A DNA stretch of 64,000 nucleotides from Escherichia coli. GTDB taxonomy: Bacteria > Pseudomonadota > Gammaproteobacteria > Enterobacterales > Enterobacteriaceae. The stretch is from NCBI RefSeq assembly GCF_044324785.1, contig NZ_CP172127.1; one strand, given 5' to 3'. The position numbers and the translations under genes were made by a program. Shown piece by piece: positions 41,660-42,616 of the stretch. Below the pieces are notes generated by a model. The model ran no database searches and had not been told where the DNA came from. It saw only the letters and a list, made by a program, of their open reading frames with translations. Position 1 is the stretch's first letter; each line of letters opens with the position of its first letter.

Positions 41660-42082
41660 ATGACGGCGCAAATATCAGCTTACGGGCGGCTGGTGGCTGA
41701 CCCGCAGTTAAAGACCACCAGCAAGGGCACACAAATGGCGATGGCGAGTATGGCGGTCCCCCTTCCATGCAATCAGGCAGATGACGGAACGGCGACGATG
41801 TGGTTATCCGTCCTGGCGTTTGGCAGACAGGCCGACGCACTGGCAAAACACCACAAAGGCGAACTGGTGAGCGTGGCGGGTAACATGCAGGTAAGCCAGT
41901 GGACAGGCCAGAACGGCGAAACGCGGCAGGGCTGGCAGGTTATCGCAGACAGCGTAATCAGTGCGAGAACGGCGCGACCGGGCGGCAAAAAAGGCCAGCA
42001 AGGGCAGGCTACTGACGCACTGAACAGGGCAAAACAACAGGCGGGTAACGACGATCCGTACGGGGACGGGATACCGTTTTAA
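41660..42082 (+). CDS. ssb: Single-stranded DNA-binding protein homologue (short phage/plasmid type)
   Basis: 140 aa; OB-fold pattern (W..V..FG..A......KG..V.V.G......W....G..R) and acidic C-terminal tail ending DDPYGDGIPF (compare E. coli SSB ...DFDDDIPF). Confidence 0.7.
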   Translation: MTAQISAYGRLVADPQLKTTSKGTQMAMASMAVPLPCNQADDGTATMWLSVLAFGRQADALAKHHKGELVSVAGNMQVSQWTGQNGETRQGWQVIADSVISARTARPGGKKGQQGQATDALNRAKQQAGNDDPYGDGIPF

Positions 42083-42118
42083 TTCACAACAGCGAACAGA
42101 GTAATTACAGGGGAAGGC

Positions 42119-42616
42119 ATGACAAAGCTGACCATAAACAGAAAACCGAAGGGCATTTACGGCACGCCGCAGAAAACAGCACAGGCGGCGCAGCAGCAGA
42201 ATAAAACCACATCGGCGCATAAAGTGATGCCAGATAACCAGAACACACAGCAGAAGCTCACAGGAGCAACACCGCGGCGGCGTATGACCAAACAGCAGCG
42301 TAAAAACCGCAGACGCGTTAACCGTCTTATTGAGCTATGGCCTGAATTATTCAGCCCGGAATCACCTAAGCCGCTTAAGGTGGGGATATTTGACGACCTG
42401 ATACAGGATATTGCCGCGAGAGGTATTTCACTCGGACAGGGAACACTACGCGCAACGCTGGCGCGTTATGTGCAGACTCCGCGCTATTACCGCGCCCTGG
42501 TAGCTGGTGGCGCGCGTTACGACCTGAAAGGCCAGCCGTGCGGCGAGGTAACACCACTACAACAGACGCACGCAGGAAAACTACTGGAGGAGATGAATGG
42601 AAATAGTAAGAAATGA
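42119..42616 (+). CDS. ProQ/FinO-family RNA-binding protein
   Basis: 165 aa; basic N-terminal region then [14 protein letters not shown]...[20 protein letters not shown]...[18 protein letters not shown], the ProQ/FinO domain signature. Confidence 0.65.

Follow-up and report, generated by a model that had tools for sequence, protein, structure and literature searches.

Gram-negative PICI-type phage satellites (GN-PICIs) share a layout in which the primase and SSB genes are grouped with the origin and the late genes are captured from the helper (PMC10111431). To date, work on FinO-domain proteins has dealt with plasmid-borne members (FinO, FopA and PcnR) and with the products of core genes (ProQ and RocC). 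FopA of IncI1 plasmids controls replication through the antisense RNA Inc and repZ (PMC7491321), PcnR of IncI2 plasmids does so through the repR mRNA leader (PMC8053102), and FinO together with RepX controls copy number (PMC8136791). These characterised mobile-element proteins have their own element's RNAs as their main targets (PMC7491321, PMC8053102). A proQ-like and PerC-like gene pair was noted in 2010 on the 8.2-kb ROD34 island (PMC2808357), and a ProQ/FinO-like regulator has been noted in episomal Vibrio satellites (PMC13230959).

Here we analyse a 64-kb stretch of Escherichia coli DNA (the window) in which an ssb gene is followed directly by a proQ/finO gene. A first-pass annotation had likened this pair to a plasmid leading-region module inside a chromosomal integrative element. 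Our main reading, to which we assign a probability of roughly 0.6, is that the two are consecutive genes in the early/replication operon of a GN-PICI-type phage satellite at tRNA-Gly (glyU).

The island at tRNA-Gly

The island is 19.15 kb long (Table 1). A perfect 19-bp direct repeat, TTCCCTTCGCCCGCTCCAA, sets its boundaries, with attL at the 3′ end of the tRNA-Gly gene and attR 19,145 bp away, which bears out the claim of a chromosomal integrative element. The inward-reading integrase carries the Arm-DNA-bind_3, Phage_int_M and Phage_integrase domains and is of the P4 type, as first proposed. It is followed by an int-alpA RNA motif, also present in the related locus L006, and by a small HTH gene at the position that AlpA occupies in PICIs; the L028 equivalent of this gene matches Phage_AlpA/HTH_17. 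The Integration, Bro, Replication (primase, SSB and ori) and Late zones succeed one another in the order of the GN-PICI layout (compared with PMC10111431). The size (within 10-20 kb), the att repeats and the inward integrase with its AlpA-type regulator are likewise those of a GN-PICI. The same element, 99.7-100% identical, is found at two att sites, with a different integrase before it at each. In E. coli, the ETT2 island adjoins the glyU-integrated island. A 396-aa ORF (37581-38771) is most likely spurious, as it overlaps both the two leftward genes called by PGAP and the icd-like gene.

As in GN-PICIs, a full virion and packaging set is absent. Gene and family searches find no capsid, portal, terminase or tail genes within the element, which has gp15-17-like internal proteins only. 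The gp15-like protein is 80% identical in amino acids to epsilon15 gp15 (tblastn), and the late-zone gene order is, by annotation, that of epsilon15 gp15-gp17, the internal/ejection proteins of an epsilon15-like podovirus. By its sequence, the late zone is copied from such a podovirus. The 64-kb window shows no sign of a helper prophage. Upstream of the late zone, the 138-aa ORF shares 83-85% nucleotide identity with 'Pac1'/terminase of P1-like phage-plasmids and, among the loci compared, is confined to the window lineage. The perC-family gene is frameshifted, and in this lineage the circuit may therefore have partly decayed.

Table 1 Features of the glyU island, with positions in the window
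Feature	Position	Strand	Basis
tRNA-Gly(CCC) (glyU)	33488..33562	+	ARAGORN, Rfam
attL, 19-bp repeat	33544-33562	+	tRNA-Gly 3′ end; perfect direct repeat
P4-type tyrosine integrase, inward-reading	33687..34940	+	Pfam; PHROG 1
int-alpA RNA motif RF02996	34985..35052	+	Rfam, 46.9 bits (gathering score 35.8)
Small HTH regulator	36094..36291	+	PGAP call in SCU-105 (99% identical): 'helix-turn-helix transcriptional regulator'
Bro zone: AntA/AntB (36367-37191), BRO-N (37184-37741), anti-repressor-like	36367..37741	+	PHROG Ant families; PGAP names
Terminator near the two leftward genes	37819-37800	-	Terminator scan
Two small leftward genes, hypothetical and YlcI/YnfO-family, divergent from the early operon	37910..38362	-	NCBIfam YlcI_YnfO_N, E 3.5e-16; PGAP
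Early rightward promoter, putative (TTGACA); operator-like palindrome TGTGCGCACA in two copies	38431..38470	+	Read from the sequence
Overlapping early genes: Icd-like (38568-38771), 85-aa ORF (38764-39021), DUF4222 (39024-39326)	38568..39326	+	NCBIfam phage_ICD_like, E 3.5e-19; PHROG 285; PGAP
DUF927 primase-helicase, satellite replicase	39323..41449	+	Pfam DUF927, E 1.6e-46; PHROG 1139 'DNA primase', E 4e-174
Putative origin: AT-rich spacer with iterons around it, first two inverted, then four direct	41473..41597		Iteron count, sequence
Satellite-type SSB, 140 aa: OB fold, short linker, DGIPF tip	41660..42082	+	Pfam, NCBIfam, PHROG
FinO-domain protein, 165 aa: disordered basic N terminus (1-49), arginine-rich helix (58-73), FinO domain (~64-162)	42119..42616	+	Pfam, PDB, AlphaFold
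138-aa ORF, 20-nt overlap with the ProQ/FinO stop; N-terminal part P1-type PacA-like, C-terminal part Ant-like	42597..43013	+	PHROG 63, PHROG 1711
perC-family gene, frameshifted	43025..43250	+	PGAP 'PerC family transcriptional regulator, frameshifted'; phmmer E 1.8e-8
Strong intrinsic terminator, most likely the end of the early/replication operon	43252..43281	+	9-bp stem, 5 GC pairs, then T8
Late zone: 68-aa ORF, gp15-like (43682-46213), gp16-like (46213-48273), gp17-like (48252-51029), 104-aa ORF	43379..51343	+	tblastn; PHROG 992, 1145, 684
Second iteron cluster, origin-like architecture	52045..52201		Repeat and iteron searches
attR, 19-bp repeat	52689..52707	+	Repeat search

The replication region with ssb and proQ/finO

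The interval between the primase-helicase gene and ssb holds 6 of the 14 matches to the iteron AACCCGCA in the window, where 2.6 would be expected. The 211 nt upstream of ssb have a strong single-stranded DNA fold (hairpin z -4.9 and -4.7), because the inverted iterons of the origin-like site form the hairpin. A Frpo/ssi-type ssDNA promoter was considered at this position, but the fold itself is explained by these iterons. A consensus scan finds no promoter on the + strand between 41450 and 41660, and from this and the gene overlaps we infer a single rightward early/replication operon. The terminator scan returns 33 terminator-like sites against 19.8 ± 4.9 expected. Given this background, the - strand matches within ssb and proQ, which are weak 5-8-bp stems, are not taken as antisense terminators.

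Domain searches recover both folds named by the first-pass annotation, with the two genes on the + strand exactly where they had been called. The SSB matches Pfam SSB PF00436 over residues 4-99 (E 3.2e-16), NCBIfam TIGR00621 at 61 bits (curated cut-off 53.95) and PHROG 44, 'single strand DNA binding protein' (E 1e-39). Its C terminus, NDDPYGDGIPF, has the expected IPF tip and is less acidic than the DDDIPF of E. coli; a cfPICI relative ends in DDISF. The protein is 69% identical to a cfPICI SSB. Against 50,697 phage records, identity is 31% or lower. The gene is under purifying selection (median dN/dS 0.15). Its product is an SSB of satellite type, which most likely serves satellite replication.

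The proQ/finO gene begins 36 nt beyond ssb, with the Shine-Dalgarno-like AGGGGAAGG before it, and PGAP gives the two genes these same names in 99-100% identical E. coli genomes. Pfam PF04352 covers residues 64-162 of the protein (E 1.6e-23), and sequence matches in the PDB include the ProQ N-terminal domain (5NB9, 2e-14) and FinO (1DVO, 4e-11). The AlphaFold model has a block-mean pLDDT of 88-95 over residues ~61-160, and its best 26 Foldseek matches in the PDB are all FinO-domain structures, headed by FinO 1DVO (E 4e-7, RMSD 2.1 Å). Residues R58, R69, Y70 and R80 of E. coli ProQ align to R111, R122, Y123 and R133. Among 24 relatives, Y123 and R133 are invariant, and almost all retain R111 and R122 (R122 at least 90% conserved). 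The gene is under purifying selection (median dN/dS 0.26). Judged by these contact residues, the modelled FinO fold and the selection on the gene, the protein looks competent to bind RNA.

E. coli ProQ is 232 aa long, and the window protein 165 aa. The latter scores below the cut-offs of both the ProQ orthologue model NF003434 (57.5 bits against 127, profile positions 9-107 of 205) and the FinO model NF010317 (55.7 bits against 136), and the element has no tra genes. The fold, the retained RNA-contact residues and the FinO-family precedents suggest that it is most likely an RNA chaperone. Action on element or host RNAs is the most reasonable prediction of its function.

As to an RNA partner, Rfam (E<=1) finds no C4/isrK or other sRNA in the window element. 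C4 occurs with isrK in 3 of ~11 ProQ-bearing satellite lineages, and a C4/CI-type immunity RNA is therefore not an obligate partner of ProQ/FinO. When the 120 nt upstream of proQ/finO are aligned across ten contexts, homology starts at the ATG only. No linked leader or antisense element is thus evident, and the alignment speaks against a conserved one accompanying the gene within those 120 nt. The gene also occurs in CP4-like islands without replicase, SSB or PerC (L007, L008 and L025), which weakens a strictly replication-linked role; purifying selection there is similar.

Distribution and the plasmid leading-region comparison

Of 5426 complete E. coli genomes, 1077 have DNA relatives of proQ/finO. 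Their 1538 places are without exception chromosomal, as are 3646 of the 3648 E. coli places matched by the pair query. The adjacent pair occurs in 170 E. coli genomes; in a spread sample of pair-query matches, 17 of the 30 genomes listed match the SSB part only. An identical ProQ/FinO protein is found on at least 1000 contigs, and the family as a whole is highly diversified (dozens of 90%-identity clusters, 50-100% identity). The order replicase, SSB (not always present), ProQ/FinO, PerC recurs behind P4-type integrases at four E. coli att sites (glyU, thrW, a tRNA-Pro site and yicC/dinD) and also in Salmonella, Citrobacter and E. albertii; the replicases are of three types overall. In a Serratia relative, DUF927 and ProQ are present but SSB and PerC are not. 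The near-constant neighbour of ProQ/FinO is PerC rather than SSB, which is missing from 4 of ~11 ProQ-bearing satellite lineages (L006, L009, L021 and L028) and from class-B islands. Most SSB-bearing satellites, such as cfPICI L003 and L030 (PerC directly after SSB), are without ProQ/FinO. Where the two genes co-occur, they are always neighbours in an unchanging order, ~33-42 nt apart and directly 3′ of the primase/origin. Among GTDB representatives, a single-protein scan gives no matches and an alignment scan gives three loci (E. albertii, Serratia oryzae and a distant MAG). The clade is thus narrow, and these context statistics rest on E. coli genomes and sampled loci. IMG/VR adds seven loci, four of them of one lineage.

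This setting bears on the proposal that the pair is a transplanted plasmid leading-region or establishment module serving single-stranded DNA entry, as in conjugation. Both families do occur on conjugative plasmids, with a FinO-domain match in >5000 plasmid records; F and R64 have leading-region ssb genes, and the IPF tip is common to plasmid SSBs and the island SSB. However, family searches and PGAP annotation find no relaxase, T4SS, psiB/psiA, ardA or ParB-like genes between attL and attR, and every ORF of at least 90 aa in the element is a satellite/phage gene or has no family match. The companions of ssb in the leading regions of F and R64 (psiB/psiA, ardA/antirestriction, DUF1380, DUF905 and ParB-like genes) are absent here. 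The SSB is 26% identical to that of F and 24% to the leading-region SSB of R64. Similar SSBs (E<=1e-5) occur in 50 of 72,556 plasmid records, two of the 50 conjugative, and the best plasmid matches are mislabelled chromosomes or circularised PICIs. Over 77 aa, the ProQ/FinO protein shares 29% identity with the FopA homologue of R64, and the places matched by the pair query are, with two exceptions, chromosomal. Nor is the pairing typical of leading regions, as judged on the two archetypes F and R64: ssb lies ~39.5 kb from the finO remnant in F and 23.9 kb from the FopA homologue in R64, where it is flanked by antirestriction, DUF1380, DUF905, ParB-like and PsiB genes. An ICE or conjugative identity of the island was discarded, as no gene in the element supports it. 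Since the SSB adjoins an iteron origin, a single-stranded entry state is needless as an explanation. We consider the leading-region proposal largely refuted and hardly credible for this locus.

The first-pass annotation had also called the pairing unusual beside an integrase and a replication protein. Both neighbours are present, the second being the DUF927 primase-helicase, but their company with an SSB is not unusual: SSB, primase and origin are published together for GN-PICIs (PMC10111431), and the order recurs at the four att sites listed above. The annotation of the two genes is itself ordinary, in that routine pipelines name both and an SSB beside a primase is a published GN-PICI feature.

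Proposed function, alternatives and known systems

In the satellite reading that we favour, a helper, probably an epsilon15/phiV10-like podovirus, would induce the island. A rightward transcript would then start near 38430, span the icd-like, DUF4222 and DUF927 primase-helicase genes, the iteron origin, ssb, proQ/finO, orf138 and perC, and end at 43252-43281. The primase-helicase would open the neighbouring iteron origin, and the satellite SSB would coat the unwound DNA while its IPF tip engages host SSB-partner proteins, supporting burst replication of the excised double-stranded circle. The FinO-domain protein, of FinO-like architecture without the ProQ C-terminal domain, would be a separate accessory and not a partner of the SSB. 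It most likely binds a hairpin-plus-3′-tail RNA from the satellite, the helper or the host, which it may stabilise or whose pairing it may speed. The characterised mobile-element FinO proteins (FinO, FopA and PcnR) all act in such a manner. Binding of this kind would adjust how many copies the satellite has, when expression changes over to its PerC-dependent and late phase, or both.

A closer link between the two genes can be imagined, in which they form a functional pair at the fork or origin, for example with the FinO-domain protein on primer RNA or R-loops and the SSB on the displaced strand. The invariable adjacency, order and spacing 3′ of the primase/origin fit such a pair, as does its presence in 170 E. 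coli genomes. Yet ProQ-bearing lineages and class-B islands that lack the SSB, satellites such as L003 and L030 that have the SSB alone, the 17 SSB-only genomes in the sample of 30 and the near-constancy of PerC, not SSB, as neighbour make this improbable, and we know of no FinO-domain protein that acts on primers. Still less probable is a view of the island as a decaying relic in which, for this strain, both genes are functionless passengers. In its favour are the frameshift in perC, a late zone with three virion genes only and the lack of a visible helper prophage within the window. Against it, attL and attR match perfectly, the element is nearly identical behind its two integrases and att sites, neither reading frame is broken and both are under purifying selection, and the exact ProQ/FinO protein stands on those 1000 or more contigs. 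The alternative that we take most seriously, while judging it unlikely, gives the FinO-domain protein an offensive or hijacking role, in which it would bind helper or host RNAs (phage antisense or late mRNAs, ProQ-dependent sRNAs) and not those of the satellite. Retention of proQ/finO in CP4-like islands lacking replication genes suggests targets encoded elsewhere, and neither Rfam nor the upstream alignment finds a linked RNA. Diversification into dozens of clusters is as expected of a conflict gene, and host ProQ binds many prophage and island RNAs (review PMC9977716). In contrast, a dN/dS of ~0.26 is purifying overall and not diversifying, and the own-element targets of the characterised mobile-element FinO proteins (PMC7491321, PMC8053102) speak for RNAs of the satellite itself.

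A wider, tentative suggestion concerns the clade as a whole. The satellite-borne FinO-domain clade, which is large, diversified and present in ~20% of complete E. coli genomes, may consist of dedicated RNA chaperones that time satellite replication or late expression via a satellite RNA, or that capture helper or host ProQ-class RNAs against the helper. If true, either role would add an RNA-chaperone layer to satellite-helper conflict, the first to be shown there. This separate clade, found on phage satellites and P4-type islands in about one in five E. coli genomes, is under purifying selection and almost always has a PerC-type activator adjacent. Its RNA ligands would tell whether satellites control burst replication, or hinder helpers, by RNA chaperones. 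The window protein is a compact natural FinO-domain variant, presumably with few targets, and should be useful to RNA biologists.

Among known systems, the element shares with GN-PICIs of the EcCICFT073 type (PMC10111431) a size of ~19 kb, a tRNA att site with direct repeats, an inward P4-type integrase with AlpA, a Bro/Ant zone, a 'Replication zone' of primase, origin and SSB, and a variable helper-captured 'Late zone'. It differs in placing ProQ/FinO, a gene unmentioned in PMC10111431, between SSB and PerC, and in a late zone of podovirus internal/ejection proteins alone. The cfPICI at roxA/phoQ of E. coli O145 (L003) likewise has int, AlpA, Icd-like, DUF4222, replicase, a hypothetical gene, an SSB (69% identical) and PerC; it lacks ProQ/FinO, uses a RepA-type helicase in place of DUF927, and its late zone comprises capsid, decoration and small terminase genes. 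DUF927, SSB, ProQ-like and PerC-like genes are shared with ROD34 of EAEC 042 and with the tRNA-Pro islands of CM2 (L011) and E. albertii (L020). Those islands are minimal (~7-8 kb) and have no late zone, in contrast to the 19-kb window element with its late zone, and in L011 and L020 icd is preceded by C4 and isrK immunity RNAs, both of them missing from the window element.

At the protein level, FinO of F-like plasmids is of similar size, has a basic N-terminal extension before the FinO domain and is the best structural match (1DVO). The finO gene, however, is distal in the tra operon, beyond traX, and its product acts on FinP/traJ, whereas the window element has neither tra genes nor FinP. 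By sequence, the solved structure nearest to the window protein is that of chromosomal E. coli ProQ (5NB9, E 2e-14), whose key RNA-contact residues are retained. The window protein lacks the linker and the C-terminal Tudor-like domain of ProQ, and is borne on a mobile element where ProQ is core. Although its N-terminal region differs from those of FopA and PcnR, and no Inc-like antisense RNA is identified in the window element, these two plasmid proteins offer the best functional analogy for what a FinO gene may do within a replication module.

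Organisation and class of the island

The window is E. coli chromosome: xdhA and actS are followed by tRNA-Gly(CCC), by an inserted island and then by ETT2, a type III secretion island. An element of 19.15 kb is bounded by two exact copies of a 19-bp direct repeat (TTCCCTTCGCCCGCTCCAA), one at 33544-33562 (the tRNA 3′ end) and one at 52689-52707. Gram-negative phage-inducible chromosomal islands (GN-PICIs) are organised in four zones, Integration, Bro, Replication plus Late, where Primase and SSB lie together with the origin, the Late zone consisting of gene clusters captured from helper phages (PMC10111431). 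The window island has the same four-zone layout, and the element is therefore a PICI-type phage satellite and not an ICE. No relaxase, T4SS, psiB or ardA was found in the island. The first-pass annotation had considered the SSB and ProQ/FinO pairing unusual beside a P4-type integrase and replication protein; this is not upheld, and an SSB gene beside primase and origin is the published GN-PICI arrangement (PMC10111431).

Features of the satellite island, in window coordinates
Feature	Position	Strand	Remarks
P4-type integrase	leftmost island gene		Arm-DNA-bind_3, Phage_int_M and Phage_integrase domains
int-alpA RNA motif	34985-35052, directly after integrase gene		Rfam 46.9 bits
267-aa protein, then small HTH regulator	after int-alpA motif		267-aa protein without named function
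AntA/AntB and BRO-N proteins	after HTH regulator		
Two small genes	after BRO-N	leftward	one of YlcI/YnfO family
Divergent promoter region	38431-38470		TTGACA promoter-like site flanked by two TGTGCGCACA palindromes
Icd-like gene, 85-aa ORF, DUF4222	after promoter region		
DUF927 primase-helicase	after DUF4222		PHROG 1139, E 4e-174
Iteron gap, 210 bp	primase-helicase to ssb		six AACCCGCA, two inverted and four direct, around AT-rich spacer
ssb	41660-42082, after iteron gap	+	140 aa
proQ/finO	42119-42616	+	165 aa
138-aa ORF	42597-43013		overlaps proQ/finO stop codon by 20 nt
perC	43025-43250		frameshifted; PGAP annotation of genomes 99-100% identical across region
Terminator	43252-43281		strong
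68-aa ORF, then three large proteins	after terminator		843, 686 and 925 aa
Late zone	43682-51343		
Second iteron cluster	52045-52201, ~500 bp inside attR		GCGGGTTAT x3, AT-rich spacer, ATAACCCGC x2-3

The TTGACA/TGTGCGCACA site has the leftward ylcI/ynfO-like genes on one side and the rightward icd-like early operon on the other; this putative site is likely to be the satellite's main repressor/operator switch. The AACCCGCA iterons occur 14 times in the window against 2.6 expected. The second iteron cluster mirrors the putative origin at 41473-41597 and could be a second origin, a handcuffing/packaging site or a tandem-element remnant. In this lineage perC, the usual direct follower of the ProQ/FinO gene, is frameshifted, and only here does the 138-aa ORF part the two. 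Within that ORF, positions 42614-42766 have 83-85% nucleotide identity to 'Pac1'/terminase (pacA) of P1-like phage-plasmids, and its C-terminal half matches PHROG 63 (Ant); the ORF could be a chimera for packaging redirection or anti-repression.

The Late zone holds only homologues of the epsilon15 (Uetakevirus) internal/ejection proteins gp15, gp16 and gp17, whose sizes and order its three large proteins share. The 843-aa protein is 80% identical in amino acids to gp15, and the 686- and 925-aa proteins match PHROG 1145 and PHROG 684 ('virion structural protein'). The island was found to lack capsid, portal, terminase and tail genes, and none of the papers examined describes a PICI that brings only its helper's DNA-delivery proteins. 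A second satellite carrying a DNA-injection protein is K. pneumoniae NZ_CP033626.1, a 22.9-kb circular 'plasmid' that is actually a PICI in circularised form, built on the same backbone (int, HTH, AntA, Icd-like, primase-helicase, hyp, SSB, PerC, and a late zone with a tape measure protein). As this record shows, some of the 'plasmids' in PLSDB are in reality satellites that have excised.

Affinities of the SSB and the FinO-domain protein

Both ORFs lie on the plus strand where the first-pass annotation had placed them, and domain searches confirm both folds, so that this observation stands. SSB residues 4-99 match Pfam PF00436 (E 3.2e-16); the protein scores 61 bits against TIGR00621 (curated cut-off 53.95), matches PHROG 44 (E 1e-39) and ends in ...NDDPYGDGIPF. 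Its identity to the SSB encoded by a capsid-forming PICI of E. coli O145 (gene order int, AlpA, Icd, DUF4222, RepA helicase, hyp, SSB, PerC, capsid) is 69%, but to the SSBs of the conjugative plasmids F and R64 only 26% and 24%. A tblastn search of 72,556 plasmids matched 50 records, two of them conjugative, the best matches being pieces of chromosome that carry a plasmid label, or circularised PICIs, and none of 50,697 phage genomes gave a match above 31% identity. By these comparisons the SSB is assigned to a satellite lineage. Its median pairwise Nei-Gojobori dN/dS is 0.15 (21 pairs).

Residues 64-162 of the ProQ/FinO protein match Pfam PF04352 (E 1.6e-23), and its sequence matches in the PDB are ProQ-NTD 5NB9 (2e-14), FinO 1DVO (4e-11), NMB1681 and RocC. 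In an AlphaFold model that draws on 24 relatives, residues ~61-160 reach a block-mean pLDDT of 88-95, residues 58-73 form an arginine-rich helix and residues 1-49 are disordered; all of its 26 best PDB fold matches are FinO-domain structures, led by FinO 1DVO (E 4e-7, rmsd 2.1 Å). ProQ residues R58, R69, Y70 and R80 correspond to R111, R122, Y123 and R133, of which Y123 and R133 are invariant in the family and R122 is conserved in at least 90%. The protein falls below the curated cut-offs of both NCBIfam models, ProQ and FinO, and shares only 29% identity over 77 aa with the R64 FopA homologue. It belongs to PF04352 as an orthologue of neither ProQ, FinO nor FopA, and is part of an unstudied satellite- and island-borne clade.

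The family alignment has three conserved parts: a 14-aa N-terminal peptide, a basic motif TKRQRKNRRRINRL and the FinO domain. Median pairwise Nei-Gojobori dN/dS is 0.26 (55 pairs, including comparisons between the two locus classes, A and B, described below). The first ~45 nt of the coding region (42119-42165) are strongly conserved in nucleotides even between classes, against an overall dS of ~1 (alignment A2), and homology between contexts ends sharply at the ATG. A constraint on the protein, a boundary of cassette recombination or an RNA element may lie behind this pattern.

Distribution of the two genes

Of 5426 complete E. coli genomes, 1077 have relatives of proQ/finO by blastn, at 1538 places, all chromosomal and none on plasmids; at least 1000 contigs are on record with the identical protein. 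A joint ssb and proQ query found either gene in 2408 genomes and both adjacent in 170, with 3646 of 3648 places chromosomal. Sampled loci fall into two classes. In class A, satellites of PICI type share the gene order [Icd-like]-DUF4222-replicase-[hyp]-[SSB]-ProQ/FinO-PerC. Their insertion sites are glyU, thrW, a tRNA-Pro site and yicC/dinD, and their hosts are E. coli, E. albertii, Salmonella and Citrobacter; neither SSB nor PerC is present in a Serratia relative. The replicase is a DUF927 protein, a D5_N/Pox_D5 primase or an AAA_25 RepA helicase, and the right arms are highly varied (for example epsilon15 gp15-17, an AAA ATPase with DUF4435, SieB, or nothing). Class B comprises CP4-like islands with YagK/YfjJ, AlpA and UCP030791, and without replicase, SSB or PerC.

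SSB occurs in 7 of ~11 class A lineages, always directly upstream of ProQ/FinO (spacer ~33-42 nt), and most SSB-bearing satellites have no ProQ/FinO (the SSB part alone matched in 17 of the 30 genomes listed, a spread sample). Each gene is therefore an accessory with a distribution of its own, and the two are neighbours only in some elements. PerC is the more constant partner, lying downstream of ProQ/FinO in 10 of ~11 class A lineages and mostly overlapping it. The thrW satellite of E. coli 55989, which shares the int-alpA RNA motif, is a sister element that has DUF927, ProQ/FinO and PerC and lacks SSB; its cargo (L006, 14438-16394), an AAA ATPase and a DUF4435 protein, presumably resembles the PARIS anti-phage system. 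ROD34 of EAEC 042 was described in 2010 with a proQ-like and a PerC-like gene (PMC2808357).

The first-pass annotation took the pairing as typical of plasmid leading regions, which neither archetype bears out. In F, ssb (58.6 kb) lies among antirestriction, DUF1380, DUF905, ParB-like, psiB and hok genes, and a finO remnant at 98.7 kb follows traX. In R64, psiA and ardA join these companions around ssb (56.3 kb), and the FopA homologue, at 31.8 kb, is outside the leading region. The SSB affinities and the chromosomal distribution of proQ/finO likewise speak against a leading-region module.

Proposed function and comparison with known systems

Most likely, a helper phage would induce the rightward early operon, the primase-helicase would fire the adjacent iteron origin, and the satellite SSB would support the replication burst and recruit host factors through its IPF tip, and the FinO-domain protein would act on a hairpin-plus-tail RNA at the post-transcriptional level. 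Precedents exist among the FinO proteins of mobile elements, which determine replication or copy number: FopA with Inc/repZ (PMC7491321), PcnR with repR (PMC8053102) and FinO with RepX (PMC8136791). Episomal Vibrio satellites, too, are reported to have a ProQ/FinO-like regulator (PMC13230959). That the gene also sits in class B islands, which lack replicase, SSB and PerC, speaks for targets that are not necessarily replication-linked; action on helper or host RNAs is therefore kept as a sizeable, though less likely, rival. The first-pass interpretation is supported only in part: its idea that the homologue controls RNAs is retained as a probable function, and that of a single-stranded state is not upheld.

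Rfam found no C4/isrK in the window element, and these RNAs occur in only 3 of ~11 ProQ-bearing satellites; upstream alignment across contexts found no conserved leader travelling with the ProQ/FinO gene. In the tRNA-Pro islands of CM2 (L011, 5247-5435) and E. albertii (L020, 3236-3424) and in a related ProQ-bearing satellite (L026, 1065-1758), isrK and C4 antisense (P4 CI-type immunity) RNAs lie just upstream of icd-like. Window-type elements have small leftward genes, including the YlcI/YnfO family, in their place, and the two are alternative immunity modules on one backbone.

Reviews report that FinO genes borne by plasmids or phages often occur integrated in chromosomes (PMC9977716), which makes the finding an ordinary one; its remaining interest lies in the RNA target of this abundant satellite- and island-borne FinO clade. 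The element itself belongs to a known kind, the GN-PICIs, of which the SSB is a known component.
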